Shown here piece by piece: positions 13,546-61,273 of a DNA stretch of 64,000 bases. The position numbers were made by a program, and so were the translations under genes. Below the pieces are notes generated by a model. The model was not told the DNA's origin. It searched no databases and worked only from the letters and a program-made list of their open reading frames with translations. Position 1 is the first letter of the stretch; the number at the start of each line of letters is the position of its first letter. Source of the DNA: Candidatus Pacearchaeota archaeon (GTDB taxonomy: Archaea; Nanobdellota; Nanobdellia; Pacearchaeales; GW2011-AR1); contig JAGVXH010000004.1 in the NCBI GenBank assembly GCA_018303845.1, positions 197,165 through 261,164 on the forward strand, written 5' to 3'.

Positions 13546-13551
13546 TAAAAA

Positions 13552-31835: not shown

Positions 31836-32171
31836 ATGGAAGATATCTTTGAAAACACAATCCTTTGTAAGCACTGCAACAAAAAAATGCAGCCAGAACA
31901 AATTTCTAGGAAGGGCTTCATTCTTCGAACTCTAAAATGTGAACCTTGTAAAAATCTAATTGTTCATCCAGAAGACTTAAAAGAATACGAAAGTTTTCAA
32001 AATATCAAGAAAAAACAATTCAAAGTCAAACTTCGATACGTTGGAAATTCCTATGCGGTATCAATACCAAGAGAAATAATTGACTTCATGAATGAACAAG
32101 AAAAACAAATGGATAATATAGTAAATATGTGTATGGAGGATATGAGGAAACTTTCCTTAAGATTTAGATGA
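31836..32171 (+). CDS. zinc-ribbon + AbrB/SpoVT-like DNA-binding protein
   Basis: CKHC...CEPC ribbon, then [23 protein letters not shown] (AbrB swapped-hairpin pattern). ATGA overlap with cdc48. Confidence 0.6.
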
Positions 32172-34483
32172 AAGAAGACAAAGAACAAACATTAAAATTA
32201 AGAGTAGTTGAAGCACTCCAAGAAGATGCCTACAAGGGAATCGTAAGAATAGATCCAAATCTAATGAAAAAACTTTCCTTAGACAGAGGAGACATAGTCT
32301 CAATATCCGGAGGTAGAGAGACATACGTGATAGTAGACCAAGCATATCCAGCAGATCATGGAGAAGCAATAATCCGGATGGATGGGATAACAAGAAAAAA
32401 CGCAAAGACCGGAATTGGAGAGCATGTCCAAATAAAAAAAGGCAAAATTCTAGAGGCAAAAAAAATTACAATAGCTCCAGCCCAAGCAGGAATCATGGTC
32501 AAAGGAAATCCTGATAATTTTAGACGCGGGCTTCTAGGAAAACCTGTGAATAAAGGAGACATTGTAGTAATGGGAGGCGCACAACAGCGTCGAGACATTA
32601 TGTCAGAAGATCTAAACAATTTATTCGGTGGCGACATAAGTGAAGTCTTCAATCAAATGGGATTCGGTGGTATACCAGGCGGACTAACCCAAGTCAGATT
32701 CGTAATCGCTTCAACAACTCCAAGCAAACCTTGCATCATAACAGAAAACACCGAAATCATACTCTCTCCAAAAGCATTAGAAGTATCCGAAGAATCAATA
32801 CCGCAAATAACTTACGAAGATATCGGAGGACTAACTGATGAAGTAAAAAAAGTTCGAGAGATGGTGGAACTCCCATTGAAACGTCCAGAAATTTTCATGC
32901 GACTAGGAATCGAGCCACCAAAAGGAGTCCTGCTTTACGGTCCGCCAGGAACAGGAAAAACTCTCCTTGCAAAAGCCGTCGCAAATGAATCCGAAGCACA
33001 TTTTATTTTACTAAACGGCCCAGAAATTATGTCAAAGTTCTACGGAGAATCCGAAAAGAAAATCCGTTCAATATTTGAAGAAGCAGAAAAGAACGCACCG
33101 GCAATAATTTTTATAGACGAAATAGATTCACTTGCCCCGAAGCGAGAAGAGGCAGGTGGAGAAGTCGAAAGAAGAGTAGTCTCACAATTACTAACAATGA
33201 TGGACGGATTACAAGCAAGAGGAAAAGTCGTAGTCATCGGAGCGACAAACCGTCCAAATGCAATAGACCCAGCTCTTCGTCGTCCAGGAAGATTTGACAG
33301 AGAAGTAGAAATTTCCGTACCAGACAAAGCCGGCCGAATGCAAATATTACAAATTCACACAAGAAATATGCCACTTACAAAGTCCGTAAAACTAGATGAG
33401 CTAGCCAGAAAAACACACGGCTTCGTAGGTGCCGACATAAATTCCCTAGCAAAAGAAGCCGCAATGATAGTTATAAGAAAAAATCTAGATAAACTAAAAT
33501 TAGAAGAAGATAAAGAAATATCACAAGAAATCTTAGACCAGTTAAAAATTTCAGGCAAAGATTTTGAAGAAGCATTAAGAGTAGTAAGGCCTTCCGCAAT
33601 GAGAGAAGTCTTAGTAGAAACCCCGAACACAAAATGGGCAGACATCGGAGGAGTAGACGAAGTTAAGCGAGATCTTCGAGAGGCAGTAGAATGGCCATTG
33701 AAATTTCCAGACGCATTTTCAAGAATGGGAATCACTCCGCCAAAAGGAGTTTTGCTCTATGGTCCACCAGGTACGGGAAAAACTCTTCTCGCAAAAGCCG
33801 TCGCGAATGAATCCGAGGCAAACTTCATCCAAATCAAAGGACCAAGCCTACTAAGTATGTGGGTAGGAAAGTCCGAAGAGGGTGTCCGGAAAATATTTGA
33901 ACGAGCTCGTCAAGTTTCACCATGCATAGTATTTTTCGACGAGATAGATTCTCTAGCTGGTAAACGGGGAACAGGGATGAGCGGTGGCTCTAAAGTAACA
34001 GAAAACGTCCTAAACCAACTCTTAGCTGAAATGGACGGAATCGAAGACTTAACAAATGTCATAGTAATTGGAGCAACAAACCGACCAGACATTTTAGACC
34101 CCGCACTTCTAAGGCCAGGAAGATTCGACAGAATAGTCTATGTCCCAGTCCCAACAAAAGAAGGCAGATTAGAAATCTTAAAAATTCATACAAACAAAAT
34201 GCCAATTGAAAATAAAGAAAAACTAGTAGAAAGTTTATCGGAAGAAACAGAAGGATTCACAGGGGCAGACTTAGAAGCACTGGCAAGAGAAGCCGCAATG
34301 CTTTCCTTACGAGAGGATATATACGCCAAAAAAGTTAAAAAAGAACACTTCGTAAAAGCTATGGAAAAGGTCAGACCTTCCGTGTCAAAAAGCGACGAAG
34401 AGAGGTATAAACAAATCGAATCAAAATATCTAAAATCAGCAAAGGCGGCACTGCTGGATAAAAGTGCGAGCTACACAGGTTAA
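32168..34483 (+). CDS. cdc48: Cdc48/VCP-like AAA+ ATPase (N domain + D1 + D2)
   Basis: Double-psi N domain ([21 protein letters not shown]). Two [15 protein letters not shown] Walker A boxes. Walker [10 protein letters not shown] / IVFFDEIDS. Second region of homology in both rings. Confidence 0.95.
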
Positions 34484-34484
34484 A

Positions 34485-34844
34485 ATGTTCGGAGACGATT
34501 CATTCGCAGGAATCGAAGATTTATTCAACCAACTATCTGGCGCGAGAAGACAATCTTCTTACAGTTCAAGGATTCAAACTCAAACTCTTTTAGGCACAGT
34601 TGAATCAAAAAAAGAAACAAGATTAATTTTTGATTTATCAGGTAAAAAAATAATATCATTAGGAGTTAAAGATGGACTTGAAACAAACGAATATGGAGAA
34701 AGGGTTCACAACGGGCAAAAAACTTTAGAAATAAAACTCGAAGACAATGAAAGCCTAAAATATATTCTTCCAACAGCTCTCGCGAAAAGAAAAATCAGCC
34801 ATACATTTTCTAACGGAATACTGGAGGTTTCCATCCAAAAATGA
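34485..34844 (+). CDS. Hsp20/alpha-crystallin-like small protein
   Basis: The ATG lies 1 nt after the cdc48 stop. C-terminus ...LKYILPTALAKRKISHTFSNGILEVSIQK resembles the end of an alpha-crystallin domain. ATGA overlap with the next cdc48 paralogue. Confidence 0.5.
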   Translation: MFGDDSFAGIEDLFNQLSGARRQSSYSSRIQTQTLLGTVESKKETRLIFDLSGKKIISLGVKDGLETNEYGERVHNGQKTLEIKLEDNESLKYILPTALAKRKISHTFSNGILEVSIQK

Positions 34845-37054
34845 AAAGCAAAATAACTCTCGAAGTAATAGAAACAAATCAAAAATATGTTGGAAAAAAT
34901 TTAGTAACAATATCCAATGTTGATATGGAAGGCTTAGGAATCGTATCGGGAGATATCGTAAAAATAGGAATTAGAAAAGAGCTTTATCTTAGGGCGATAA
35001 GAGTAAGCGATGAGTTCAAAGGAAAACTAAGTATCGACGGAGAAGCCAGATCATTCTTGGGTTTATCAGTCGGAGAAAAAACAACAATATTAAAAGCAGA
35101 AGAAATGCCATTGTTAAAATCGGCAACACTTTCAATTTTACCTCACGAATCATTTTCTAACGAACAACTAAAATCCTACAACTCCCAGTTAAGAGAATCC
35201 GAAGAATTCCAAAAAATTTTAGTAGACTCTCCACTTTCAATCGGACAAAAAATCACAATTCCAACATCAGTGGGAAAGCTCGCATATTCCGTAACAAAAA
35301 TTTTGCCGAAGAAAACAAATTTCGGACTAGTGACAGATTCGAGTAAAATTGAAATTTCCGAAGATATAGGAGAAGGCTCCGGCGCAAACATCTACTACGA
35401 AGACATAGGCGGATTAAAAGAAGAAATCGAAAAAATAAGAGAAATGGTAGAATTTCCAATGAAGCATCCTGATATTTTCCAAAGACTAGGAATCTCTGCA
35501 CCAAAAGGAGTTCTAATGACAGGTCCGCCAGGCACAGGAAAAACTCTTCTAGCAAAAGCAGTCGCAACAGAAACCGACGCAAAATTCATCTCAATTGCCG
35601 GTCCAGAAATCATGTCTAAATATCACGGAGGCTCCGAAGAAAATTTAAGGGCAAAATTTGAAGAGGCAGAAAAAAACACGCCAGCAATAATCTTCATTGA
35701 CGAAATAGATGCAATCGCACCAAAGCGAGGCGAGTCACATGACCAAGCAGAAAAGCGAGTTGTAACTCAACTCCTAACACTAATGGATGGACTAAAGTCA
35801 AGGGGACAAGTAGTCGTAATGGCAGCGACAAACAGGCCAGAAGATTTAGACGAAGCATTGAGAAGACCAGGCAGATTCGACAGAGAACTAAGAATCAACC
35901 CACCAACAGAAGAAGGCAGAAAAGAAATCTTACAAATTCACACAAGAAACATGCCACTCGAAGACAAAGAAGCTTTACTAGAAGAATTTTCAAACAAAAC
36001 AATTGGATACACAGGAGCAGACTTAGAAGTCCTGTGCAAAGAAGCAGCACTTCATTCCGTAAAGCCTTTCTATAGTGCAATCATTTCAATTGGAGAACAA
36101 ATCGACGAACAAGACCAAGAAAAATTACAAGAGTTAGAAGCAAAGAAAAGAGAACTTCTAAACAAAATAATAATCTCAAGAGACGATTTCGTCTACGCGA
36201 TGAAAATGGTCGAGCCGTCGGCCATGAGAGAGGTTCTAATTAAAAAACCAAATGTAAGATGGACAGATGTGGCAGGATTAGAAGAAGCAAAAGAAAAACT
36301 TCGAGAGTTAGTTGAACTTCCATTATTAAGACCAGACTTATACCGAGCAGCCGGAATCAAACCAAGTAAGGGAATCCTTCTTTACGGCCCGCCAGGCACA
36401 GGAAAAACTCTCCTAGCAAAAGCCGTAGCAACGGAATCAAACGCAAATTTCATTTCAGTAAAAGGCCCAGAGTTAATTTCAAAATGGGTAGGCGAATCCG
36501 AAAAACATATAAGAGACATATTCAAAAAAGCAAACCAAGTTTCCCCTGCAATAATTTTCTTCGATGAATTCGACTCAATCTCAAAGTCCCGTGGTTCTGG
36601 AATCGGAAGCGACTCATCAGAAAAAGTAGTCAACCAACTCCTAACTGAACTGGATGGAATAGAAGAATTAGAAAACGTAATAATTATAGCGGCAACAAAC
36701 CGAAAAGACCTAATCGACCCAGCACTTCTAAGGCCAGGAAGAATCGAAGCCCATGTCGAACTAACCAACCCAGATGACGAAACAATAAAAGAAATCTTCA
36801 AAGTCCACACGCGAGAAATGCCACTAGAAAAATCCGTCTCACTAGAAGAACTAGGAAAAATGGCAAGAGGCTGGACGGGTGCAGAAATAGAAAGCGTTTG
36901 CAGAAGGGCAGGGCTAAATGCAATTAAGAGGAATTACAAAGAAACAGATTCCAAAAAACTAACAATCACAAAGGAAGATTTCAAAGAAGCAATGGAAGAA
37001 GTTTCTAAAACAATTGGCAAGTCATTAGAAGAAACAAAACCAAAGAAAAAATAA
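34841..37054 (+). CDS. second Cdc48/VCP-like AAA+ ATPase paralogue
   Basis: Divergent N domain. Two [17 protein letters not shown] Walker A boxes. Walker [10 protein letters not shown] / IIFFDEFDS. Extra linker (EQIDEQDQEKLQELEAKKREL). Ends in KPKKK. Confidence 0.9.
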   Translation: MKSKITLEVIETNQKYVGKNLVTISNVDMEGLGIVSGDIVKIGIRKELYLRAIRVSDEFKGKLSIDGEARSFLGLSVGEKTTILKAEEMPLLKSATLSILPHESFSNEQLKSYNSQLRESEEFQKILVDSPLSIGQKITIPTSVGKLAYSVTKILPKKTNFGLVTDSSKIEISEDIGEGSGANIYYEDIGGLKEEIEKIREMVEFPMKHPDIFQRLGISAPKGVLMTGPPGTGKTLLAKAVATETDAKFISIAGPEIMSKYHGGSEENLRAKFEEAEKNTPAIIFIDEIDAIAPKRGESHDQAEKRVVTQLLTLMDGLKSRGQVVVMAATNRPEDLDEALRRPGRFDRELRINPPTEEGRKEILQIHTRNMPLEDKEALLEEFSNKTIGYTGADLEVLCKEAALHSVKPFYSAIISIGEQIDEQDQEKLQELEAKKRELLNKIIISRDDFVYAMKMVEPSAMREVLIKKPNVRWTDVAGLEEAKEKLRELVELPLLRPDLYRAAGIKPSKGILLYGPPGTGKTLLAKAVATESNANFISVKGPELISKWVGESEKHIRDIFKKANQVSPAIIFFDEFDSISKSRGSGIGSDSSEKVVNQLLTELDGIEELENVIIIAATNRKDLIDPALLRPGRIEAHVELTNPDDETIKEIFKVHTREMPLEKSVSLEELGKMARGWTGAEIESVCRRAGLNAIKRNYKETDSKKLTITKEDFKEAMEEVSKTIGKSLEETKPKKK

Positions 37055-37324: not shown

Positions 37325-38238
37325 ATAACTTCACCTCCCGCAATAACAAAAGTATTCTCAATCTGACTAACAGGCATCCGACTCTTCTCAACTAAAATCG
37401 GATACTCATAAAAAACTCCAGCCCGAACCAAATTTCCCAATATAAATTTAAGTTTAGTCTCCGAACCCCCGAACCCCAAAACCCCCGAACCCCCGTCTGC
37501 TTTCGCTAGCCAGCGAAGGCAGAATGGACGCGTTCCATATTCCCTTTTGACAAATTCCAAAACCTTCCTCGCATCCAAATCTCGAACCTGCCCTTCTCCC
37601 TTCAAAACATAAATCCCACCGCCTTTCCCTTCAATAACATCTCCAACTCCCATAGTCACAAACGGCTCGATCGCAAAAGCAACATTGTCCAAAATTTTCT
37701 TATTCTCATTTCGATAATTAGAAATCGTCAAACCAGCGTGAATATTATTTCGCCCCAATGCGTGTCCACACAAACTCTTAATCACAGCAAACCGCTTATC
37801 ATCCCACTTTTCAACAACTTTCTGCACAGCCTCTCCAACATCTTTAACCTTCATTCCAACTTTCACAATCTTACTAGCCTCAGCCAAAATTTCCTCATTG
37901 AATCTAATCATGTCATCAAATCTTCCATCGTCAGTCAAATCAAAACTAATTGCACAATCTGCAATAAACCCATCAACAGCAACTCCAATGTCAATTTTCA
38001 AAATCCCTTCAGCAACAATATCACAATCACTAGTCGGAGTAAAATGTGCCGCAATTTCATTCAACCCCAAATTAACAGGAAAGGCCCCCTCACCACCAAG
38101 CTCTAAAATCTTAGCGTCTATTAGATTAGCAATATCAATCAACTTCATCCCAGGCTTAACTATCTCACGCGCAAAAACTTTAATTTCCCGAGCAATTTTA
38201 CCAGCCTTAACATAAGAATCAATTTCATTTTTATCCAT
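37309..38238 (-). CDS. map: type 2 methionine aminopeptidase
   Basis: Aligns by eye with archaeal MetAP: AGKIAREI, AFPVNLGLNEIAAHFTP, IDIGVAVDGFIAD, LCGHAL, FAIEPF, PFCLRWL, YEYPILVE. Contains the in-frame G-run insert GGSGVLGFGGS. Confidence 0.95.
   Translation of the reverse strand: MDKNEIDSYVKAGKIAREIKVFAREIVKPGMKLIDIANLIDAKILELGGEGAFPVNLGLNEIAAHFTPTSDCDIVAEGILKIDIGVAVDGFIADCAISFDLTDDGRFDDMIRFNEEILAEASKIVKVGMKVKDVGEAVQKVVEKWDDKRFAVIKSLCGHALGRNNIHAGLTISNYRNENKKILDNVAFAIEPFVTMGVGDVIEGKGGGIYVLKGEGQVRDLDARKVLEFVKREYGTRPFCLRWLAKADGGSGVLGFGGSETKLKFILGNLVRAGVFYEYPILVEKSRMPVSQIENTFVIAGGEVICTTM
37461..37494 (+). repeat. C5-run repeat, variant unit CCCCCGAA (inside the map CDS)
   Basis: ccgaacccccgaaccccaaaacccccgaaccccc. 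On the coding (minus) strand this gives four G4-5 runs. Confidence 0.85.
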
Positions 38239-39059: not shown

Positions 39060-39557
39060 CTAACTTATCCTCTCTTTCCTTCTTCTCTCCTTAGGCAAAA
39101 ACCCAAACAACTTCATCCCATCCGCCCCGACCTTCCCAATCCCAACAAAATCCTTCCCATCAAACGACTTAACGCAAACAAAACCTTCATCCATTTTTTG
39201 CTTCTCCTCTAATTCAATATCCCTTCCCAAAAACCATTCAATCTCCTGTTCCTCTGTCAAAACTAAAACCCGACCCTCAAGTTGCTCCTTCCAAACATGC
39301 ATCCCATCAAGCGAAAGCCTTACCTCACGAACCCCACTTCGATTAACCATATCTTTCCCAACATACAACCCAACACCTTCAATTGGCAACAATTTCCAAA
39401 GATCCATAATCTGCTCCCGGTCCAAATCTCCACTAAACGCCCGAATCCTTTCCTCCCCGCTTCGAACTAGCATCTCTGAAATCTTCGTTATCCCAAACTC
39501 ATTTAATCCATCAACAAACTTTTTCTTCTTCGTTCTGTCCAAAATTTGAATCTTCAT
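39060..39557 (-). CDS. NIP7-like pre-PUA/PUA RNA-binding protein
   Basis: 165 aa. The C-terminus GFVCVKSFDGKDFVGIGKVGADGMKLFGFLPKERR is PUA-like. Length and layout match archaeal NIP7 homologues. Assigned from memory only. Confidence 0.5.
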   Translation of the reverse strand: MKIQILDRTKKKKFVDGLNEFGITKISEMLVRSGEERIRAFSGDLDREQIMDLWKLLPIEGVGLYVGKDMVNRSGVREVRLSLDGMHVWKEQLEGRVLVLTEEQEIEWFLGRDIELEEKQKMDEGFVCVKSFDGKDFVGIGKVGADGMKLFGFLPKERRRKERIS

Positions 39558-39600
39558 TTCCCACCTCTCAATTCAAAATAATCACAATAGTCAAGTCTTC

Positions 39601-39652
39601 CCAAACCCCCAAACCCCCAAACCCCCAAACCCCCATGAAAATCTCCGATTTT
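39601..39652 (+). repeat. (CCCCCAAA)4 + hairpin element, copy 1
   Basis: cc(aaaccccc)x4-atgaaaatctccgatttt. 51/52 identical to copy 2. Confidence 0.95.
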
Positions 39653-39681
39653 AAAAGCCGCCAACTCGGGCGAAGCCCTAA

Positions 39682-39733
39682 CCAAACCCCCAAACCCCCA
39701 AACCCCCAAACCCCCATGAAAATCTCTGATTTT
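39682..39733 (+). repeat. (CCCCCAAA)4 + hairpin element, copy 2
   Basis: cc(aaaccccc)x4-atgaaaatctctgatttt. The flank atgaaaatc-tct-gattttcat (39716-39736) is a perfect 9-bp inverted repeat overlapping the GDPD stop codon. Confidence 0.95.
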
Positions 39734-40488
39734 CATCTCCCACCAGCATAAGCCATATCGTCCGCAATCAATATCGCCAAATTTAATTTCCTAACCTTTT
39801 CATAATCACTCTTAGAAGTCAAACTATAAACTCCAACATCACACCCAGCAAATTTCTTCAAATATTTCTCGCTAACTAAATCCTTCGGTAAAAAAACATA
39901 ATCAACATCAATCAAACGAAAACCAATAATCCCAGCAACCTTCTCAAAAAAACTCTCACTACTAATCAACAATCCAACTTTAACCCCATGAAGCATTCGC
40001 CCTATCTTCATAACAGCAAGAATATTAAAAGATTCAACAATCAAATAATCAAACAACTTTAATCTAGGATTTTTTAAATTAAAATCAATCAACTTCTCAG
40101 CCAATGCATCTTCCAACTTCCCACCAAAATAACCTTTCCTCTTAATCTCCAGCAAAAGATGTTTGGGAATCTTGCCATTTTTCCAATCCTCTAAAACATC
40201 ATCCAGCGTAGGAATAAAACCCTCCTTAAAACCCAAAGCCTTTCCAACATCAATCCTCTTTAAATCATTCATGCCCAAATCGCAAGCATAATTATTCCCG
40301 CCACCAAAACGCTCCAATTTCCTATCATGAAAAACAAAAAGCTTTCCGTCCCTAGACAGCTGAACATCAAATTCAATTCCATCAAACCCCTCTTTCTTCG
40401 CCAACCTAAAAGCCGCAAGTGTATTCTCACAAGCCTTCCCCCGAACACCCCGATGCCCAAATCTCAAACTCTTAAACTTCGCCATCAC
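39733..40488 (-). CDS. glycerophosphodiester phosphodiesterase
   Basis: GHRGVRG..ENTLAAF, GFDGIEFDVQLSRDGKLFVFHD. Typical GDPD motifs. Confidence 0.9.
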   Translation of the reverse strand: MMAKFKSLRFGHRGVRGKACENTLAAFRLAKKEGFDGIEFDVQLSRDGKLFVFHDRKLERFGGGNNYACDLGMNDLKRIDVGKALGFKEGFIPTLDDVLEDWKNGKIPKHLLLEIKRKGYFGGKLEDALAEKLIDFNLKNPRLKLFDYLIVESFNILAVMKIGRMLHGVKVGLLISSESFFEKVAGIIGFRLIDVDYVFLPKDLVSEKYLKKFAGCDVGVYSLTSKSDYEKVRKLNLAILIADDMAYAGGR

Positions 40489-40940
40489 AAAATCCTCTCC
40501 ATAGCAATCCGTCGTCCTTTATAATTTTTTATCATACTCTTCGGAAATAATTTTTTAGAAGGTTTTTCAATTTCAACAAATCCATTCTTCCCGTAAAACC
40601 GAATCGCATTTCCCATTTCAGAATATGTCGTTAAAAGAATTTTTTCAAAACCAGCTTTCTCACAAAAATCAAAACACTTCTTCATAAGCTTATCACCAAC
40701 TCCATTTTTCTGAAAGTCTTTTTGAACATACATCCTTTTCAAGCTCGCAACCTTATCATCAACTTTTTTAATCGCCGCACATCCAATTATTTTCCCATCT
40801 TCCTCGGCTACGAAAAAAACATCATAATAATTAAAATCTTCCCATTCAATTTTAATCGAACCATACATATCGCACAAAATACAACGAATCAATTCTCTAA
40901 TCTTAGCCATGTCCCCAGAATTATATTTCCGAATTTTCAT
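40485..40940 (-). CDS. GNAT-family N-acetyltransferase
   Basis: LKRMYVQKDFQKNGVGDKLMKKCFDFCEKAGFEKILLTT (motif A, Q/RxxGxG/A). Confidence 0.85.
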   Translation of the reverse strand: MKIRKYNSGDMAKIRELIRCILCDMYGSIKIEWEDFNYYDVFFVAEEDGKIIGCAAIKKVDDKVASLKRMYVQKDFQKNGVGDKLMKKCFDFCEKAGFEKILLTTYSEMGNAIRFYGKNGFVEIEKPSKKLFPKSMIKNYKGRRIAMERIL

Positions 40941-41517
40941 CTAAATGCCTCACACAGTTTAACAAAATTTCATTAAAGTTTTTATCTTCATCAATTTCAA
41001 AAATACTAATTGAAGTATTTCCCAAATTAGGAATATCTTTATGCTCACAATTCATTACATGTCTTAAAATATTCTTGCAGATTCCACTATGTCCAACCAA
41101 AAGAATATTTTCGAAATCCAAAGTCAAAATATAATTCAACAAATCTTTAGCTCTGGCAAGAATCTCTTCATGAGTTTCAACATCATCTCCCTTGATAACG
41201 TCAGCAATAAGCTTATCCTTTCCAATTCCCAAGTCTTCTTTTTCTCTTTTCCCTTGAAAACTTCCAAGATATCTTTCCCTCAATCTCTCATCAAACAAAA
41301 TTTCACAATCATGAAACCTCGCAACTTCTCTCGTCGTATCAACCGCTCGAGCCAAATCACTAGAAATAATCAAATCTATCTTTTCATCCTTTAATTTTTT
41401 CGCCAATCTCTGAGCCTGTTCCCTCCCTAAATCCGAAAGAACTCCAGGCAAATGTCCTTGAATAATTCCCGCCCGATTCTCTACTGTTTCTCCATGCCTA
41501 GTAATAATAAGCCTCAT
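40921..41517 (-). CDS. histidine phosphatase (phosphoglycerate mutase family)
   Basis: MRLIITRHGETVEN (RHG catalytic motif) and a later LLVGHSG. The internal ATG is preceded by GGAGG. Confidence 0.85.
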   Translation of the reverse strand: MRLIITRHGETVENRAGIIQGHLPGVLSDLGREQAQRLAKKLKDEKIDLIISSDLARAVDTTREVARFHDCEILFDERLRERYLGSFQGKREKEDLGIGKDKLIADVIKGDDVETHEEILARAKDLLNYILTLDFENILLVGHSGICKNILRHVMNCEHKDIPNLGNTSISIFEIDEDKNFNEILLNCVRHLDENSEI

Positions 41518-41540
41518 CCCAAAACCTCCCAACTCAAAAA

Positions 41541-41571
41541 GTCCGCGTTAGTCCGCGTTAGTCCGCGTGCC
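41541..41571 (+). repeat. triple 10-nt repeat family, copy d (gtccgcgtta x2 + gtccgcgtgcc)
   Basis: Three tandem 10-mers in the 55-nt gap between two minus-strand genes. Confidence 0.85.
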
Positions 41572-41572: not shown

Positions 41573-42208
41573 TTATTTCCCTTCCCTCATCAATTTATTC
41601 ATCTCATCATAAGAAATCCTAAACCCATAAACTCTTTCAAACAAATCATAAAACTGATCCTCACTTTTAATAGAACCCAATCCTTTCAAAAGCTCCAATA
41701 CATTTTCTTTACCAAATTCTTCAACTAAAATCTTAACAACAAATCCAGATTCATTATAAACAAATTTTCCATATTCGCCATAAAAATCCAAAAAGTTAAC
41801 AAACTTTTCAGGACAAGTTCGAGTCTTGTATTGCCCAGCCAAATAAAGTGCCAATCCCTCACTTAACCAAACAGGAGTATGCGAATAATGAAAAAGATTC
41901 CAAAAGGAGTGCGTAAGTTCGTGTTTAATTAGCATAAAAAATCTTTCATCAGAATAGATATGACCATCAGCATCTTTCTCGTAAGCTTCAGGATCTAAAA
42001 GATAAATAGAGTCATTACATGCAAAAGCAATTTCCCAACCATCAGTTTCTTTATCTCTAATAGAGTTGTAAGTCTTTCTGTCAGGAACAAAAACAATTTT
42101 AGTCCTATTCATAATCCAATCTCTCTCAAAAAATTCATCTAATTCCTTCATTGCCCGCTCATAAAATTCATCAAATTTCTCATTCTTAATTTTCTCAATC
42201 TTAAACAT
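41573..42208 (-). CDS. putative HExxH zinc metallopeptidase (peptidase MA-like)
   Basis: LIKHELTHSFWNLF ... WLSEGLALYLAG (HExxH plus a downstream Glu). Internal ATG chosen just after the upstream stop. Confidence 0.6.
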   Translation of the reverse strand: MFKIEKIKNEKFDEFYERAMKELDEFFERDWIMNRTKIVFVPDRKTYNSIRDKETDGWEIAFACNDSIYLLDPEAYEKDADGHIYSDERFFMLIKHELTHSFWNLFHYSHTPVWLSEGLALYLAGQYKTRTCPEKFVNFLDFYGEYGKFVYNESGFVVKILVEEFGKENVLELLKGLGSIKSEDQFYDLFERVYGFRISYDEMNKLMREGK

Positions 42209-43208
42209 TTTTTCCCTCCTCCCCCAACTTCCGAATCCGCGCCACGAAAAATCCGTCGGTATCATTATCCTGCGGGTACAGCCTCAAACACTTACTAACT
42301 TCATCTGAAAACTTCTCTCCTTCCCATTCACAAACCCCGCTTCTAAACTTCAAAGGCAAACTCAATTTTTCAACCTCACAATCAAACTTCCTAAGTAAAG
42401 AATTAACCGTCATCTCATTTTCTTCCGGACTCAAAGTGCAAGTCGAATAAATCATAACCCCGCCAACTTTTAGCAAATTAAACGCAGCCCCAGCTAGCGC
42501 CCTTTGAGTCTTCGCAATCTTTCTAATCATATGTGGATTCCACATCTCAAAAGTCTTAGGACTCTTCCTCAAAGTCCCCTCCCCCGAACAAGGCGCGTCC
42601 ACCAAAATCTTATCAAACCTAAACTGCGACTTCTTAAACAGCCTATCACAAAGCGCAACGCCTTCCATCCGACAAACAATCGTATTCATGACCCCACACC
42701 TTTCCAAATTAGAATTCAAAATCCCAATCCTCCCCATGTTCAACTCATTTGCCAAAATAAACCCGCCATTCCCCATCATCGCTGCGGCTTGCGTAGTCTT
42801 ACTCCCAGGCGAAGCACACAAATCCAAAACATGGTCTCCCTCCTCAGGACGCAAAGCCATCATCGGAAGCATAGAAGAAATTTCCTGAACATAATAATAC
42901 CCAAGCAAATGCTCCCTAGTCTTCCCCAAATCCCCAGGAAGAGGCCCAGAATCCACAATCATTACCTCGGGAAAATCCTTAAACGGCTGTCGAACAACCC
43001 ATCCATAATTCTGCAATCTCTTAAGCAACTCCTTAGCATCCATCTTCAAAGTATTACACCGAATCGAGCTAGGACACTTAGTATAAGAAATATCAAAAAA
43101 TTCCTTCGCTCCAGCCTCACCTAAAAGCACCTCCATCTTTTTCACAAAACCTTCTTTCGGAGGAAACTTCTCTCTCAAGTACGCAGAATAACTCTTCCGT
43201 TCATCCAT
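42201..43208 (-). CDS. NOL1/NOP2/Sun-family RNA cytosine-C5 methyltransferase
   Basis: VLDLCASPGSKT (SAM site), ILVDAPCSGEGT (motif IV), MIYSTCTLSPEENE (motif VI), C-terminal TDGFFVARIRK. Confidence 0.9.
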   Translation of the reverse strand: MDERKSYSAYLREKFPPKEGFVKKMEVLLGEAGAKEFFDISYTKCPSSIRCNTLKMDAKELLKRLQNYGWVVRQPFKDFPEVMIVDSGPLPGDLGKTREHLLGYYYVQEISSMLPMMALRPEEGDHVLDLCASPGSKTTQAAAMMGNGGFILANELNMGRIGILNSNLERCGVMNTIVCRMEGVALCDRLFKKSQFRFDKILVDAPCSGEGTLRKSPKTFEMWNPHMIRKIAKTQRALAGAAFNLLKVGGVMIYSTCTLSPEENEMTVNSLLRKFDCEVEKLSLPLKFRSGVCEWEGEKFSDEVSKCLRLYPQDNDTDGFFVARIRKLGEEGKNV

Positions 43209-43248: not shown

Positions 43249-45183
43249 CTACTCAAAAAACACCTGCGAAACTCCCCTCACTTTTCCAACCCTACCAACC
43301 ATCCAACAAACATCATCAAGCCCTCGAGGGATAACAACAAAATCACATTCAACATCCCCATTTCCAACAATTCGCGCATTCGCACTCCGAACAACAAACC
43401 CACCTCTCGAAATCGTATTCAACAAATCTGCCAAAATCCCACTCCTGTCTCCGCAAAGAGCTTTAAGTCTCAAAGGTCGATTAAACTTTTCCTTCCAAAA
43501 AACAGGAACAGCATTTTTCAAATTTCCAGCAAGTCGCGGACAATCACTTTTATGAACCAAAATCTTTTTCTGCGATTTCGCAACCCCAAGCAACTCGTCT
43601 TTCGGTAAAGGGTAACAACACTTCGCAAAAGAAAAATCACTTCGCAAAAAATCAGCAGATTCAACCAAGCTATCAAAATCCCTCTCGTCGCCAATCAAAA
43701 TATTCGGTTTCTTCGGAACAGGAATAGATTCATATCTTTTAATCCCCTGTCTAATCTTAGATTTCGCTCTAGATGAAACAACAAACTTCAACCAGTCCCT
43801 TCGTGGCCTCTGATTCTTATTGGTCAAAATCTCAACAACACATCCATTCTTCAAGACTTCCTTCAACGAAACAAATTTCCCATCAATCCTCCCGCCAATA
43901 GCCCGCTCTCCAATCTGCTGATGAATTGAATAAGCAAAATCCAAAAGCGTAGCGTCCTTAGGAAGTTCACGGACATCGCCCTTTGGAGTATAGCAATAAA
44001 TTTTATCCGCAAACAAATCAAGTTTCAAATTCTTCATAAATTCTTTATCAGTTGAATCCCTCTGCGACTCCATCAAAGCCTTCATCCATCCAACCTTCTT
44101 CTCAAAACCAGCATCTCCAGAAACACCCTTATAATTCCAATGAGAAGCAATCCCCTCCTCTGCCTCTTCGTCCATTTTCTCAGTCCTAATCTGCACTTCA
44201 ATTTCCTTAGCATTCTCGTCTCCTGCCTCCCGTTTCCCATCCGCATTTCCAACAGACACCCGCACGACCGTATGAAGCGACTGGTATCCACTAAGTTTTG
44301 GAGAATTAATATAATCTTTTAATCTCCCCTCAACCGGAATAAATCTTTCGTGCAAAATCCCAAGCACATCATAGCAATCTCGCTCTCCCTTAACGATAAT
44401 CCTAATCGCATAATGATCTTTCTGTTTGCTAAGCGGCTCGCCCCTTTTATGTATTTTATCAAAAATACTTTTAATCTGTTTATTTCTCCCCTTAATTTTC
44501 ACAACTCCAACTCGTGGTTTCAAAATCTCTCCAAGTTCCTCAATAAACTTCCTAAGAAATTCTTCTCGTTCACTTTTCGTCTCCTTAAAAAAATTAGAAA
44601 TCTCTTCGTACTTTCGCGGGTGAAGTGTCTTAAACGCAAGGTCTTCCAAATTATTTTTAATATAATCAAGCCCAAGCCTCATCGCCAAAGGAACATAAAT
44701 CTCCAAAATATCCTCGGCAATTCGCCTTTGCTCCTTTTCTTTTAACGCAGAAATAATTCTCAAATTCGCAAGCTTAACAGCAAGCTTAACAAAAACAACT
44801 CGAACATCATCAAGCCCAGTAAGCAAAATCTTCCTAACCATTTCCGCCTGAACCAAAGTATTATTCTTTTTTATTACCCGAAGTTGCAACTGCCCAAAAA
44901 CAATTTTAGCAATCTCTTCACCAAACTCCATAGCAATATCTTTGAAGGCAAGGTCCTTTTCAACGCCATACAAAATACCAGCGACTACAATTTCAGCAGA
45001 TAAACCACTCATGACCAAAATCTCTCCAACGTCAAGATTAAATTCAGAAAGCGGCGTCCTAGAAAATTCTTTTTCTCCAACCAGATTTAGCTCGACAAAT
45101 TCAATCGACTTATTTATCAATCGCAGATCCTTATTAGAATATTTTCTCTCGCAAAGTTCAAGAAATCTTTCCTTATTTTTCAT
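43249..45183 (-). CDS. long RelA/SpoT homologue ((p)ppGpp synthetase; hydrolase domain apparently degenerate)
   Basis: Synthetase motifs GRNKQIKSIFDKI, DHYAIRIIV, YINSPKLSGYQSLHT, EVQIRTEKMDEEAEEGIASHWNYKG. TGS domain (IYCYTPKGDVRELPKDATLLDFAYSIH). CC/zinc-finger region (AKCCYPLP). ACT/RRM-like C-terminus. The HD signature position reads GILYGVEKD instead of LLHDxxED. Confidence 0.88.
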   Translation of the reverse strand: MKNKERFLELCERKYSNKDLRLINKSIEFVELNLVGEKEFSRTPLSEFNLDVGEILVMSGLSAEIVVAGILYGVEKDLAFKDIAMEFGEEIAKIVFGQLQLRVIKKNNTLVQAEMVRKILLTGLDDVRVVFVKLAVKLANLRIISALKEKEQRRIAEDILEIYVPLAMRLGLDYIKNNLEDLAFKTLHPRKYEEISNFFKETKSEREEFLRKFIEELGEILKPRVGVVKIKGRNKQIKSIFDKIHKRGEPLSKQKDHYAIRIIVKGERDCYDVLGILHERFIPVEGRLKDYINSPKLSGYQSLHTVVRVSVGNADGKREAGDENAKEIEVQIRTEKMDEEAEEGIASHWNYKGVSGDAGFEKKVGWMKALMESQRDSTDKEFMKNLKLDLFADKIYCYTPKGDVRELPKDATLLDFAYSIHQQIGERAIGGRIDGKFVSLKEVLKNGCVVEILTNKNQRPRRDWLKFVVSSRAKSKIRQGIKRYESIPVPKKPNILIGDERDFDSLVESADFLRSDFSFAKCCYPLPKDELLGVAKSQKKILVHKSDCPRLAGNLKNAVPVFWKEKFNRPLRLKALCGDRSGILADLLNTISRGGFVVRSANARIVGNGDVECDFVVIPRGLDDVCWMVGRVGKVRGVSQVFFE

Positions 45184-48169: not shown

Positions 48170-48609
48170 AGGGCTAAAATGAGAAATACCATAGAGACTA
48201 TGAAAAGTATCATAGAGCTCAATATCACAATTTTATAAAATTTTAATTTTTTATCTTTTTCATTCAAATGTAAAATAAAGCTAAAAAATGCATAAGGATT
48301 ATATCTGGTATATTCCGGCATTTGTTTTGAGATAAAAGGGATTTCGGTCATATCTGTTAACTTATCTAGATATTTATGATTCTTGTTCTTTAAGTGTAAA
48401 TACATCTTAAAATTAAGATTATAAGATAAAAAGAGAAGAGCTATTGCTAATATATTAAAAAATATTTCAAGTAAATAAAAAGTAGACATCTCTCCTTTTA
48501 TCATTCCATAGATTATGGCTCCTTGTATTATTATGAATATCGGTAGGCCAAAAATGATGATTGCTATCAAAAAACCCCTCCACAAAGCATAGTTTTTTTT
48601 ATTCTTCAT
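48166..48609 (-). CDS. 4-TM membrane protein, candidate immunity protein for the RHS C-terminal domain
   Basis: Lies immediately downstream of the RHS ORF and overlaps it. Four hydrophobic segments. Visibly more AT-rich than its neighbours. Confidence 0.5.
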   Translation of the reverse strand: MKNKKNYALWRGFLIAIIIFGLPIFIIIQGAIIYGMIKGEMSTFYLLEIFFNILAIALLFLSYNLNFKMYLHLKNKNHKYLDKLTDMTEIPFISKQMPEYTRYNPYAFFSFILHLNEKDKKLKFYKIVILSSMILFIVSMVFLILAL

Positions 48610-50481: not shown

Positions 50482-50520
50482 AAAAATCAAAACACTTTGC
50501 AACTAATAAGCCTTATTGAA

Positions 50521-50552
50521 AATTCGTGACCATCCGCACAATTCGTGGATAA
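50521..50552 (+). repeat. triple repeat family, copy f (aattcgtgaccatccgcacaattcgtggataa)
   Basis: Lies 40-70 nt upstream of the GxxExxY start. It contains the second copy of AATTCGTGGATAA. Its GTG is the spurious ORF-track start of hydB. Confidence 0.85.
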
Positions 50553-50616
50553 TATTTTATCATCCCTCCCCAAAAACCTTATAACCAACCCCAACCTAAA
50601 AACAAAGAGGTGCCCA

Positions 50617-52387: not shown

Positions 52388-52433
52388 CCAAACCCCCAAA
52401 CCCCCAAACCCCCAAACCCCCAAAATCGGAGGG
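52388..52433 (+). repeat. (CCCCCAAA)4 element, copy 3, ending in aaaatcggaggg
   Basis: cc(aaaccccc)x4 then aaaatcggaggg. The GGAGG lies 7 nt before the hydG ATG. Confidence 0.95.
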
Positions 52434-53997: not shown

Positions 53998-55262
53998 ACC
54001 TTAACCACATTTGTAAAATAGAAGGGCACGCAAGTTTAAATTTAAAGATAGAAAAAAATAGAGTCATAAAATGCGAACTTAAAGCTTCAGAAGGAGCAAG
54101 ATTCTTCGAAGCGTTAGTCCTCGGAAGAAACATCGAAGACATTCAAGAAATCGTCTCCAGAATTTGCGGCATCTGTTCCTGCTCTCATTCAGTCGCCTCA
54201 GTCCAAGGGTTAGAAGAGGCTTTAGGCATTAAACCTTCAGAGCAACAAAAATTCATAAGAGAAATTCTTCTTCTGGCAGAACGAATCCGAAGTCATGCAA
54301 CACATCTTTATTTCCTTTCTCTTCCAGATTATCTAGGAGCGTCCTCGGCGATAACATTAAAACAAGAACATAAATCAAAAGTTCTAGACGCTCTAAAAAT
54401 AGTGACGCTTGGAAATAAAATAGTAGAAAAATTCGGAGGCAGAGAAATGCACCCATTTTTAAAAATCCAAGAAGAGTTAAGAAAGGAAAACTTCGAAGAA
54501 TTAATCGCTCAATTAAAAGAAACAAAACCCCTAATCCTAAAAACAATAGAACTCTTTAATAATTTAGACTATCAAAAATTAGAAAGAAAATCAGAATATC
54601 TTTCTTTAAACGAAAAAGACAAATATGCCAACGTCTCAGGAAAAATCTATGCTGGAAAAGAAACCTTCGTAGATGACGACTATAAAACTCATCTTGCCGA
54701 AAATATCAAAGAATACGCAACGTCAAAATTCGTCCTTCATAACAAACACACATTTTCAGTAGGTGCAACTGCCAGGATTTCGAATAACCACAATCAACTA
54801 GATTTAGAAACAAAAAAAGAATTATCAAAAACAAAAATAACTTTCCCCATAACAAACCCACATCACAACTTAATCTGCCAAGCCTTAGAAATATTAAATG
54901 CAGTCAGCAGAATAACAGAATTGCTTCAGTCGCCCCCAACCCCCCAAACTTCAAACCCCCAAACCCCCAAACTTCCAAACCACCAAAACGGGACAGGAGT
55001 TTCCGCTGTTGAAGCCCCACGTGGCACTCTCTTTCACGAATACAAAATAAACAAATCTGGAATAATAGAATATTGCAACATAATAACTCCAACGGCGCAA
55101 AATCTCAATATAATGGAATCCGACATAACTCTTCTAGTAAACATTCTACTAGAACAAAAGACTTCACAAAAAGAAATCGTAGAACAAATAGAAAAATTAA
55201 TCCGTTCCTACGACCCATGTTTTAGTTGCTCAACACATTTTCTAAAAGTCAACTGGATATAA
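53982..55262 (+). CDS. hydA: [NiFe] hydrogenase large (alpha-type) subunit
   Basis: N-terminal RICGICSCSHS (RxCGxCxxxH). EAPRGTLFHEY. C-terminal DPCFSCSTH (DPCxxCxxH). Contains the repeat-derived insert PPTPQTSNPQTPKLPNHQ. Confidence 0.92.
   Translation: MAREINLNHICKIEGHASLNLKIEKNRVIKCELKASEGARFFEALVLGRNIEDIQEIVSRICGICSCSHSVASVQGLEEALGIKPSEQQKFIREILLLAERIRSHATHLYFLSLPDYLGASSAITLKQEHKSKVLDALKIVTLGNKIVEKFGGREMHPFLKIQEELRKENFEELIAQLKETKPLILKTIELFNNLDYQKLERKSEYLSLNEKDKYANVSGKIYAGKETFVDDDYKTHLAENIKEYATSKFVLHNKHTFSVGATARISNNHNQLDLETKKELSKTKITFPITNPHHNLICQALEILNAVSRITELLQSPPTPQTSNPQTPKLPNHQNGTGVSAVEAPRGTLFHEYKINKSGIIEYCNIITPTAQNLNIMESDITLLVNILLEQKTSQKEIVEQIEKLIRSYDPCFSCSTHFLKVNWI
54933..54993 (+). 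repeat. degenerate (CCCCCAAA)n element inside the hydA CDS
   Basis: cccccaaccccccaaacttcaaacccccaaacccccaaacttccaaaccaccaaaacggga. The tail aaaacggga resembles the aaaatcggaggga tail of copy 3. Confidence 0.8.
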
Positions 55263-55290
55263 TCTGTGTCAATCCGTGTAATCTGTGGCC
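55261..55290 (+). repeat. triple 9-10 nt repeat family, copy h (aatctgtgtcaatccgtgtaatctgtggcc)
   Basis: Lies between convergent hydA and the protease gene. The last codons of the protease ORF (ATDYTD) are read from it. Confidence 0.85.
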
Positions 55291-58733: not shown

Positions 58734-58808
58734 ATAAGATATTTAAATAAAAACATTAAATACTTTCGGGCTCACTTTGAGCTCATACCATGCGTATACC
58801 AAAACAAA

Positions 58809-58837: not shown

Positions 58838-58847
58838 AATTTTTTCC

Positions 58848-60026: not shown

Positions 60027-61273
60027 TTCTTTTTCACCTTCTTCTGAATCTTCTTAACAATCTTTTCTTTAATAACCTTCTTCTTAACTTTCTTTGTAGC
60101 TCTCTTCACTCTATTTTTAGTCTCCTTATACTTTTCAATCCTAGTCGAACCAGTCCTTCCCAAACCGCCAGACTTCCGAACTTCCGAACCACCTTGCGAA
60201 TCTTTGATTCGCATATGCATATGATTAACATTGTAAACCGCCGTAATAAAAAGCGATTCGCTCCAACCCAAAGGCATATTCTCATTTGGCTTATTCGAAT
60301 TAGAATAATAAAGTTCAGGAACCTCTCCACTTTTACTAACCGTTCCCAAAACTTTCGCTAAAAATTCCTTCGCCTTCTTCTCTTTTCCAAGCTTCTCATA
60401 AATAATCGCAAGCCACGCTAACCCAAATGTCCACTCAGCCTCCTCGGAAAAATTATCCAAATTCTTATTATAATAAGCGTCCCCCTTATACCGAATCACA
60501 CCCTTCTTCTTCAAAAGATGATACTCAACATTTTCCAAAATCTCTTTAGTCTGCCGAGCATTAACAACATCATAAGGCCAAATCAGTGAAAGCAATGCCA
60601 AATCAACAAATTTCTTCTCGCTCTCCCTAGGCAAAAGTTTAGCAAGAGCAGCGTAGCCTTTCTTAATTAAATCTTCATTAACCTCAATCCCATCAAGCCC
60701 TTTAACCATTTCTAAGCCCGCAACACAAGCCCCAATACTTGAAGCGTGAACCTCTTGCGCCTCTTCCCACATTCCAGAATCCGCGTCATGCCAATATTCC
60801 AAAGTCGACAAATAATCAACTAACTTTTGAACAATTCGCCTATCATCATCCTTCAAAATTTTAACCCCAGCTTTTTCGAGTTCACCAATTTTAAACAAAA
60901 TACAACCTATCGAATCATTCTGCTTATTCCCCCATTCCTCCCAAAACTCCTCAAAAGTCTCAGGATTATATCGAGCATGAATAAACTGGTGAGTATACTC
61001 AGGCTTCTGTGAAATCGCATAATCAATTTTAAATTCATGTTTCTTAAAAATATCCAAAAGCGCGCGATAAGTTTCCTCAACAGTTTTCCAATCCTGCACA
61101 ACTTCAAACGCAATACATTCATAAAAATTATCTCGAAGCCATGCCTTATCATAACCAGTCGAAACCGTAGGCTTACTAGCCGAAAACAACCCAGACTTAA
61201 ACCTCAGACCTCCAAGAATTTCTAAATGTTGCTTAACAAGTTTAGTATAATTAATCTTCTTCATCTTCACCAT
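60023..61273 (-). CDS. glycoside hydrolase family 15-like (glucoamylase-type) protein with Lys-rich C-terminal tail
   Basis: YDKAWLRDNFYE, GMWEE, (alpha/alpha)6-like length. The last about 45 aa are K/V-rich. The ORF-track start is TTG; the first ATG (61273) is used. Confidence 0.65.
   Translation of the reverse strand: MVKMKKINYTKLVKQHLEILGGLRFKSGLFSASKPTVSTGYDKAWLRDNFYECIAFEVVQDWKTVEETYRALLDIFKKHEFKIDYAISQKPEYTHQFIHARYNPETFEEFWEEWGNKQNDSIGCILFKIGELEKAGVKILKDDDRRIVQKLVDYLSTLEYWHDADSGMWEEAQEVHASSIGACVAGLEMVKGLDGIEVNEDLIKKGYAALAKLLPRESEKKFVDLALLSLIWPYDVVNARQTKEILENVEYHLLKKKGVIRYKGDAYYNKNLDNFSEEAEWTFGLAWLAIIYEKLGKEKKAKEFLAKVLGTVSKSGEVPELYYSNSNKPNENMPLGWSESLFITAVYNVNHMHMRIKDSQGGSEVRKSGGLGRTGSTRIEKYKETKNRVKRATKKVKKKVIKEKIVKKIQKKVKKK

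Follow-up and report, generated by a model that had tools for sequence, protein, structure and literature searches.

What is the tandem pair of C-rich arrays, each with a small hairpin beside it, that fills the gap between the gene for glycerophosphodiester phosphodiesterase (GDPD) and a gene for a 165-aa protein in a Candidatus Pacearchaeota archaeon, and how could such a structure come to lie within an operon? The pair is found at positions 39600-39736 of the stretch analysed here, referred to below as the window (64,000 nucleotides of contig JAGVXH010000004.1, GenBank assembly GCA_018303845.1, positions 197,165 to 261,164 of the forward strand).

The pair belongs to a dispersed, fast-evolving and population-variable family of cassettes in which a tandem array with a conserved number of units is linked to a hairpin, the G-rich strand is locked to one strand of the chromosome, in-frame copies are tolerated within conserved enzymes, and the frame that bridges neighbouring genes is kept. 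Cassettes were found only where they are harmless, i.e., in surface loops of enzymes (in frame) and at operon junctions. In the reading that we favour, with a probability of roughly one half, the two units of the tandem pair belong to a family of short inserted repeats that is lineage-specific, and the cassettes are footprints of strand-asymmetric template switching or insertion, tolerated where they do no harm. The mechanism would be template switching, with the G-quadruplex (G4) probably a by-product or at most a secondary modulator.

The tandem pair and its alleles

The two units (39601-39652 and 39682-39733) are direct repeats identical at 51/52 positions (98%) with a spacing of 81 nt, and TRF detects perfect 8-nt arrays at 39600-39635 and 39682-39716. 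On the plus strand, each unit consists of (C5A3)4 followed by a hairpin; on the minus strand, the canonical G4 rule (at least four runs of G3+, loops of 1-7 nt) is satisfied at 39600-39634 and 39682-39715. The pair occupies the 176-nt gap between two co-directional minus-strand genes and is built as follows (in the direction of transcription).

39733..40488, minus strand: GDPD gene, upstream flank
39716..39736, minus strand: module H, palindrome ATGAAAATC-AGA-GATTTTCAT with a perfect 9-bp stem and a 3-nt loop
39682..39715, minus strand: G-array 2, (GGGGGTTT)4GG, canonical G4 motif
39653..39681, minus strand: module S (spacer), TTAGGGCTTCGCCCGAGTTGGCGGCTTTT, carrying a GGGC-TTC-GCCC mini-hairpin
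39635..39652, minus strand: hairpin h' of the second unit, AAAATC-GGA-GATTTT then CAT, a 6-bp version of the stem
39600..39634, minus strand: G-array 1, (GGGGGTTT)4GGG, canonical G4 motif
39554..39736, minus strand: 60-aa bridging open reading frame (ORF), overlapping with its ATG the stop codon of GDPD (ATGA) and with its TGA the start codon (ATG) of the 165-aa gene (39557)
39060..39557, minus strand: gene for the 165-aa protein, downstream flank, without Pfam family

Both the stop codon of GDPD (TGA, 39733-39735) and the start codon of the bridging ORF (ATG, 39734-39736) fall within module H, which folds as DNA with -5.9 kcal/mol (z -5.2). An earlier note on this DNA had described the near-identical 52-nt units, the minus-strand G4 motif, a hairpin beside each array (including the 9-bp inverted repeat over the GDPD stop) and a 60-aa ORF that is just the repeat translated. 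Its observation at 39600-39736 is confirmed in all these points, the stem of copy 1 having 6 bp and the G4 motif being recovered both by regular expression and as a five-layer quadruplex per array with ViennaRNA. What that note overlooked is the copy-number polymorphism, the in-frame arrays in conserved enzymes and the general linkage of hairpin and array.

Two simple explanations can be dealt with at the junction itself. A chimeric assembly, which the earlier note had named as a danger, is ruled out, as independent ENA, JGI and NCBI assemblies carry the identical junction sequence (24 contigs with the flanking 165-aa gene were read). A termination element had been among the roles proposed, and a hairpin at the 3' end of the GDPD gene would fit an intrinsic transcription terminator. 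However, it is G5T3 repeats and not a T-run that come after the AT-rich stem, promoter and terminator scans gave no match at the element site, and the element lies within an operon, with 4-nt overlaps of stop and start codons with the flanking genes at both of its ends. We give a terminator or an artefact almost no credence.

Comparison of the syntenic loci in relatives, which the earlier note had proposed, revealed that the 81-nt unit is polymorphic in copy number. At this junction (locus A), two units are present in the window, in L030 (GCA_036829675.1) and in L031 (JGI 3300025111). One unit is present in L029 (ENA, 206-kb contig), which is exactly 81 nt shorter and has an AGA loop, and also in the more divergent strain L095-97, which has a GGA loop and the array (GGGGGTTTGGGGTTAT)x2. 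Recombination between the 52-nt repeats can turn the two-unit form into either of these one-unit alleles. At a second junction (locus B), L076 and L048 possess two units, L098 and L100 one. The alleles differ by 81 nt at locus A and by 54 nt at locus B, both multiples of three. The 81-nt second unit in the window is a cassette duplication that is polymorphic in the population.

The element also changes faster than its surroundings. In a comparison of L076 with L048, identity is 98.6-99% for the two upstream flanking genes, 95.8% for the downstream IVP gene and 92.8% for the element, and one array was changed wholesale from (G5T3)4 to (G6T2)4. Nevertheless, the bridging ORF connects the upstream stop with the downstream start in 5/5 junction alleles at three loci; the 4-nt overlaps are annotated at both ends in 4/5 of them, and in L029, where the 33-aa ORF is uncalled, they were read from the sequence. 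By chance, the frame would be preserved with a probability of about (1/3)^4-5, a figure to be read with the fact that the loci were partly found via called ORFs. As the junction insert can be read in one open frame between the upstream ATGA and the start codon downstream, the coupling of translation could survive the insertion. Furthermore, three 8-nt units make 24 nt, so that all frames of an array give one peptide (GGLGVWGF or PPNPQTPK) and whole-codon insertions are therefore equally tolerated. We read the frame preservation as selection against breaking translational coupling and not as selection for the peptide.

The alternative at this point is a family of micro-protein genes (MKIRxFH-GGLGVWGFGG-LVRASPEL) translationally coupled within operons. 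Gene callers do predict these proteins, their ORF is open and bridging in all alleles, and similar N-termini occur on the 598-aa protein of L076 and the 315-aa protein of L085. However, the peptide is not conserved: the 11 nucleotide changes between the L076 and L048 elements cause 10 amino acid changes next to genes that are almost identical, and no purifying selection is seen, for which we rejected a conserved micro-protein as a candidate. Only five related ORFs were found among 5.8 billion proteins at E <= 0.01, the remaining matches at E <= 10 being spurious ORFs over G5T3-type repeats of other organisms; a protein cluster that includes one of the related small ORFs carries the NCBI name "Candidatus Pacearchaeota archaeon". 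In addition, any frame of the 8-nt repeat codes for this peptide, and the same DNA lies antisense in plus-strand genes. A micro-protein family is thus very improbable.

Dispersed copies at junctions and in conserved enzymes

Related copies at 37461, 52388 and 54933, all with the C-rich strand on plus, had already been listed in the earlier note; we found them as described, together with a further degenerate copy at 60160-60211. In G-strand orientation, the family consensus is the palindrome ATGAAAATY-NNN-RATTTTCAT followed by (G5T3)4GG and often by TTAGGGCTTCGCCCGA. The copies of the window outside the tandem pair are as follows.

37461..37494, minus strand: array GGGGGTTC GGGGGTTT TGGGGTTC GGGGGTTC GG, in frame within the methionine aminopeptidase (MetAP) gene
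52388..52431, minus strand: (G5T3)4GG array with a half-palindrome (AAAATC on the plus strand), 5' of the plus-strand hydrogenase gamma gene, so placed that the sense strand is C-rich
54933..54989, minus strand: degenerate array with 8-nt period in the NiFe-hydrogenase alpha gene (gene on the plus strand), variable surface loop (PPTPQTSNPQTPKLPNHQ)
60160..60211, minus strand: decayed H-G copy in a gene of family GH15, ATG-CGAATC-AAA-GATTCG-CAA then GGTGGTTC GGAAGTTC GGAAGTCT GGCGGTTT GG

The GH15 copy is old and decayed; it codes for MRIKDSQGG... (compare MKIRDFHGG...), and two of its stem pairs differ from module H by compensatory changes. The array at 52388 directly follows a nucleotidyltransferase gene (NTP_transf_2 / Polbeta, 51554-52321), which is located in the hydrogenase operon between the genes for the Fe-S beta (50545-51561) and gamma subunits; gene callers run the gamma subunit through the array, to a length of 302 aa. 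The array in the hydrogenase alpha gene is translated as PPTPQTSNPQTPK.

A metagenome scan and protein searches led to family loci outside the window. In L076, from the same organism, one element (10001-10153) is located between a gene for a 254-aa protein and a 23S-rRNA-IVP gene and has the order H, G, diverged S, G, S, and another (15111-15172), a 13-bp hairpin with (G5T3)4GG, codes for the N-terminal end (MKIENFHKWGFGGLGVWGFG) of a 598-aa protein. The one-unit locus B of the relative L098 has the stem GAAAATG/CATTTTC. In another genome (L085, GCA_053534935.1), H-G' is followed by the hairpin AGAAGC-AGA-GCTTCT and then G-S, 3' of a giant gene for an 8189-aa protein, and the gene downstream of the element begins with ATGAAAATTAGACATTTTCATGTGGGGGTTTGGG. 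The S motif TTAGGGCTTCGCCC recurs only at family loci, and the spacer motif of the window pair is likewise found 3' of arrays at other loci and in another genome.

Two side observations concern such junctions. The 8189-aa ORF of L085 (1-10004) ends exactly at the ATGA of the element. In L105 (GCA_030605415.1, another Pacearchaeota genome), a 51-aa bridging ORF (6772-6927) lies between Rrp4 and Rrp41, exosome genes that directly adjoin each other in the relatives L091 and L093; it begins with an H-like palindrome ATGAAAT-CGGAA-ATTTCAT overlapping the upstream stop and has a GAGAGG-CTTTA-CCTCTC hairpin, and no G5 array.

Searches on a larger scale returned little of relevance. The exact 29-nt pattern was found at 28 loci in 185,579 species-representative genomes, none of them archaeal and none from this organism. 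We rejected these 28 loci and most of 41 metagenome loci as family members, as they are either arrays of variable length from GC-rich bacteria or eukaryotic repeats of telomere-like type. A viral link was dropped as well: the 21-nt version in three viral contigs and the S-module 17-mer in five are all chance matches in unrelated GC-rich DNA. Rfam 15 at the gathering threshold yielded three tRNAs only in the window, and permissive scans of the element regions gave no relevant match. In the literature on G4s in DPANN archaea, on tandem repeats in Pacearchaeota and on in-frame palindromic elements in archaea, we found no description of this cassette family, and the published survey of archaeal G4 motifs does not describe the element (PMC7565180).

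The arrays within conserved enzymes can be compared with insert-free homologs, and in both cases studied they are in-frame insertions (9 aa in MetAP, 13 aa in enolase). The MetAP array corresponds to the insertion GGSGVLGFG relative to the solved Pyrococcus furiosus enzyme (PDB 1wkm/1xgs) and to most homologs; another strain has (GGGGGTTC)~4 at this site. In P0160, a MetAP with 57% identity, the loop that holds the G-array in the window enzyme carries a different insertion of ~40 aa (alignment A2). This loop appears to be an insertion hot spot.

The enolase of the organism (L039; 100% identical to a protein on the 206-kb ENA contig) carries its 13-aa insertion with (G5T3)4 in a loop that could be followed through related enzymes of Pacearchaeota and Nanoarchaeota. 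In this one loop, four lineages possess a hairpin together with (G5T3)4, (G5T2)4 or (GGTGGTC)4, and other lineages have no insert; filled and array-free versions of the same site thus exist.

Enolase loop of L039: hairpin GACTTTTG-GCG-CAAAAGTC, array (G5T3)4
Enolase loop of L105: hairpin GGTTTTG-GTT-CAAAACC, array (GGGGGTT)4
Enolase loop of L094: hairpin GAAGAAGC-TTTTG-GCTTCTTC, array (GGTGGTC)4GG
Enolase loop of L091: hairpin GAAGAA-ACTACTTGC-TTCTTC (6 bp, equal to the 8-bp stem of L094 with one mismatch), array of ~4 units GGTGGTC, the last being GGTAGTC
Enolase loop of L093 and others: no hairpin, no array

The L094 enolase (GCA_018901375.1, locus 76-1377) has three lineage-specific insertions altogether. 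Two of them consist of a hairpin plus an array, and the third, which is similar to module S, forms a GC mini-hairpin (GCCCC...GCCTTCGGC...GGGGC).

Hairpins, unit number and strand

The association of array and hairpin is general. In 12/16 arrays, a perfect stem with 6 bp or more and a loop of 3-9 nt ends at most 5 nt 5' of the array, compared with 1.0% of 20,000 random positions; two further arrays also have such a stem (14/18 in total). The stems comprise at least five unrelated sequences. Folding of seven hairpins gave z-scores of -2.5 to -7.3 in five cases and of -1.7 and -2.0 in the others.

For arrays within coding genes, the 5' arm of the hairpin belongs to the native coding sequence, and the 3' arm is an added stretch that complements this 5' arm. 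In the enolases of L039, L094 and L105, the left arm is the native coding sequence for (K/R)LL and the right arm its added complement. The clearest case is a 17-bp perfect hairpin in L094, located 5' of a (GGGTCGGT) array, with both arms in conserved coding sequence (QEDF / KSLLD). When three other enolases were aligned in the 15-nt register of the L094 arms, only 5-7/15 positions were complementary. Furthermore, the right (3') arm of L094 uses the Ser and Leu codons AGT and CTT, whereas the others use TCN and TTG. Judged from these sequences, reverse copying of the flank (snap-back or template switch) would produce such a hairpin, and point mutation would be a hard route to it.

In quasipalindrome mutagenesis by template switching, and in snap-back templated insertions, perfect inverted repeats arise through reverse copying of adjacent sequence. 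The 17-bp hairpin of L094 and the hairpins of the enolases, in which the 3' arm mirrors the native flank, resemble such events. We know of no quasipalindrome or snap-back event, however, in which a four-unit G-rich array is added, nor of a recurring family of them with shared modules, and the cassettes described here do both.

The number of units is the second regularity. Nearly all arrays consist of four units plus GG, with units of 8 nt (G5T3, G6T2, G5TTC, GGNNGTTC) or 7 nt (G5T2, GGTGGTC). Exceptions are the longer hydrogenase array and two shorter ones, the first of L085 and the second of L094. As there are four units whether these have 7 or 8 nt, it is the count that is conserved and not the length. 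Arrays are homogeneous internally, differ from one another and change concertedly, which fits local amplification (1 to 2 to 4) or homogenisation; the (16-mer)x2 array of L095 fits as an intermediate pattern. In 150 kb of Pacearchaeota sequence, repeat arrays with lag 8 number 8-11, compared with 0-5 at other lags.

Four G5 tracts give a predicted G4 of very high stability on the G strand. With G-quadruplex energies, ViennaRNA predicts a five-layer G4 per array, and the two-unit transcript then reaches a minimum free energy of -125.8 kcal/mol instead of -39.3 kcal/mol; the C strand of the pair folds into the hairpin only. With their four G5 tracts and 3-nt loops, the arrays resemble canonical intramolecular G4s ((G3+N1-7)x4), e.g., the regulatory or recombination-initiating G4s of bacteria. 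Unlike these, related arrays in sister lineages lack G3 tracts, and transcripts of plus-strand genes carry the C strand.

These folds form the core of the main rival to template switching, namely a functional cis-element of the operon mRNA. Here, the hairpin sequestering start and stop codons and one or two RNA G-quadruplexes would set translation or mRNA stability in passing from GDPD to the downstream gene, with the number of units tuning the effect. Besides the predicted stability, the four G-tracts retained despite concerted unit changes, the covarying stem pairs, the ATGA overlaps at both ends and the frame kept in all junction alleles speak for such a role. However, the copies at 52388 and 54933 belong to plus-strand genes and have the C-rich strand in the mRNA, so that no RNA G-quadruplex forms there; the (GGTGGTC)4 and GGNNGTTC arrays do without G3 tracts, one- and two-unit alleles coexist, arrays are also located within essential coding sequences, and the element evolves faster than its flanks. 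We therefore hold a cis-element to be possible but unlikely.

The third regularity concerns the strand. In the window (GC ~37%), CCCCCAAACCCCC occurs 13 times at up to one mismatch (0.14 expected), in 13/13 cases with the C-rich sequence on the plus strand, and the canonical G4 motifs, six in number, are all confined to the minus strand. The earlier note had also called the density of G5 tracts conspicuous, and this stands only in part: their clustering in arrays is not random (19/46 C5 runs lie within arrays), but an overall enrichment of C5 runs had to be rejected, as 46 were observed and 54 expected under a first-order model.

C and A prevail on the plus strand over the whole window, where GC skew falls as low as -0.57; the cumulative skew is monotonic, and the window therefore lies within one compositional arm. 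Across the window (1-64000), skew reaches -0.57 under minus-strand genes and is near 0 or negative even under plus-strand genes, and AT skew is positive throughout. The skew implies a coding-strand bias and a chromosome-strand bias of ~0.2 each. In the last census (13 rows, two being truncated pieces of longer arrays), the G strand was the locally G-rich strand for all arrays (skew +0.12 to +0.53), and the rule holds also for the two arrays in plus-strand hydrogenase genes, in which the mRNA has the C strand.

Such polarity might point to a replication-polar DNA signal used for strand orientation, i.e., a G4 or hairpin for priming or pausing on the lagging strand, or an orienting sequence like Chi or KOPS. 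All arrays do have their G strand on the G-rich strand of the chromosome, whatever the gene direction, as do the six canonical motifs of the window. Yet the copies are few. At least five loci lie within ~79 kb of contiguous sequence (plus loci elsewhere), and ~15 kb of further sequence beyond both window ends contain no additional array, which corresponds to about one locus per 16-20 kb. Arrays decay within genes and vary in copy number, and strong compositional skew would by itself bias the origin and persistence of G-rich repeats. We regard a replication signal as quite improbable.

Strand lock and hairpin association could also reflect a non-autonomous mobile element, similar to a miniature inverted-repeat transposable element (MITE), REP or PATE, moved in trans by a single-strand-specific enzyme (HUH/Y1 transposase or hairpin-targeting retroelement) that inserts beside hairpins in the lagging-strand template. 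Support for this idea comes from the modules H, G and S, which are conserved across non-homologous loci in two genomes, and from imperfect direct repeats of the junction between Shine-Dalgarno sequence and ATG, which flank locus A (GGTGGGAGATGAAAATC / GGTGGGAAATGAAGATT, 14/17) and L085. They do not flank locus B, and a target duplication consistent across the loci is not seen. Terminal inverted repeats were not found either; the sole inverted repeat is the internal hairpin at one end, with no match at the other. No transposase or reverse transcriptase gene was detected by Pfam in the 64-kb window and the fetched flanks or in the annotated flanks, so no related autonomous insertion sequence was found there, and there was no Y1/HUH gene in the ~190 kb examined. 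Moreover, unit sequences vary between arrays of one genome, and the hairpin arms of copies in coding sequences are built from local native sequence. Of the MITE-like nature proposed in the earlier note, the dispersal of short repeats over non-homologous loci and a second genome has held, the terminal repeats and, in the DNA examined, the enzyme of a MITE were not found, and we consider a mobile element of this kind rather doubtful.

Origin of the cassettes and their setting

How, then, could the cassettes arise? In the template-switch reading, the product on the G-rich strand of the chromosome would be a perfect hairpin and, 0-5 nt further on, four G/T-rich units of 7-8 nt plus GG (G5T3 in this organism), to which junction cassettes often add the GC mini-hairpin module (TTAGGGCTTCGCCCGA). 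It would be generated by strand-asymmetric copying tied to replication or repair. The nascent strand may snap back at or near a hairpin, leaving behind the flank as an inverted copy; amplification of a short G-rich unit (1 to 2 to 4 times) would follow, and ectopic copying together with unequal recombination would disperse and duplicate whole cassettes. Survival would be limited to places where reading frame and translational coupling stay intact.

Several points weigh against this reading. No enzyme or template for the copying process was found. The H and S modules shared by non-homologous loci require copy-paste dispersal, which goes beyond local template switching. Four G-tracts that stay constant through concerted unit changes (G5T3, G6T2, G5T2) are the outcome expected of selection for an intramolecular G4, and compensatory stem changes (C-G / T-A / G-C in the apical pair; AAAATC to CGAATC) are expected of a functional hairpin; the frame preservation of the bridging ORF could reflect a role of the element in translation. 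Finally, the replication orientation is deduced from skew alone, and the sample of loci is biased because most additional loci came from called ORFs or exact-pattern scans, its contiguous unbiased part being only the ~79 kb.

A bolder reading goes further. Pacearchaeota (DPANN) might possess an undescribed strand-specific process of DNA writing, either a behaviour of polymerase or primase or a hairpin-targeting element, that installs cassettes of a hairpin and four G-tracts into the lagging-strand template, where they would be kept for a function of the hairpin-G4 (replication priming or pausing, translation coupling). This suggestion is tentative, and we think it unlikely.

The cassettes share traits with several known classes of repeats and match none of them fully. 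Rickettsia palindromic elements (RPE), "selfish DNA in protein-coding genes", are palindromic units of 100-150 bp without a tandem micro-array. Like them, the present family is a short dispersed repeat without a transposase of its own, found in frame in surface loops of conserved genes as well as between genes; unlike them, it has a 7-8-nt unit repeated four times beside a short hairpin, the unit varies by array and lineage, and the orientation is strand-locked. The short tandemly repeated repetitive (STRR) heptamers of cyanobacteria are mainly intergenic and are not known to be fixed at four units or tied to hairpins. The likeness here is in dispersed, lineage-specific arrays of a tandem 7-8-nt unit, and the difference in the four units plus GG, the perfect hairpin directly 5' and the arrays within coding sequences.

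REP/BIME and the PATEs derived from IS200/IS605 are hairpin elements mobilised by HUH/Y1 transposases. They, too, are short hairpin-bearing repeats, often between co-transcribed genes, and a similar single-strand, strand-biased biology is plausible. Unlike in these, no RAYT, TnpA or TnpB gene was found nearby and there is no conserved flanking tetranucleotide; the hairpin sequence varies and, within genes, is made from local sequence. The mobile G+C clusters of yeast mitochondrial DNA are palindromic, GC-rich structured inserts in AT-rich DNA that are polymorphic between strains. The cassettes resemble them as GC-rich, structure-forming inserts of an AT-rich genome that are intergenic or in frame and polymorphic between strains, and differ in their host and in combining a hairpin with tandem units instead of forming a palindromic cluster.

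The cassettes of the window are surrounded by an archaeal gene set (two CDC48 paralogs, TFIIS, an archaeal-type MetAP, a group-3 NiFe hydrogenase); the region codes also for DNA ligase, PPDK, aminoacyl-tRNA synthetases, type-IV-pilus-like ATPases and glycolytic enzymes. The CDC48/VCP-like AAA+ ATPase paralogs (771 and 737 aa, 32168-37054) stand in tandem with a 126-aa ORF between them and are the origin of the long internal DNA repeats D1-D6. A RelA/SpoT-family protein (HD_4, RelA_SpoT, TGS; 43249-45183) and an RHS/YD-repeat protein (48606-50162) are both unusual for archaea.

The window contains other short repeats as well. A second family is present at 13506-13548, 55259-55304 and 58797-58851, with related sequences at 50077-50110 and 50519-50552. 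On the minus strand it reads GGCCACAGATTACACAGATTACAC(A/G)GATTTTTG, i.e., about three 9-nt units of CACAGATTA, with a diverged form ATCCACGAATTACACGAATG...; every copy is intergenic and all share one orientation. This family could serve as a binding site for a regulator, or be a further element built of tandem units. Besides, a perfect 10-nt tandem repeat (AGTCCGCGTT x2.9) is located at 41540-41568, in the short gap between the minus-strand genes 40921..41532 and 41573..42265, and a 21-nt tandem repeat x3 (TTTTGCTTTCTCCTTGGCAAT) at the window edge (63749-63810), where the minus strand codes for a repeated heptad of KIAKEKA type.

DPANN genomes are tiny and streamlined, so that recurrent insertions in essential enzymes and operon junctions are unexpected in them. 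The practical consequence for annotation is that gene callers label the cassettes as hypothetical small proteins and extend real genes over them, as in the 302-aa hydrogenase gamma subunit. The family carries a testable signature: a 5' hairpin, a count of four units with a lineage-specific unit, concerted array change, strand orientation and kept frames. If its cause is mutational, it would expose a peculiar behaviour of replication or repair in organisms that cannot yet be cultured alone, and would explain some of the "lineage-specific loops" of their proteins. If the cause is functional, the cassettes would be among the clearest natural hairpin-G4 modules in archaea.

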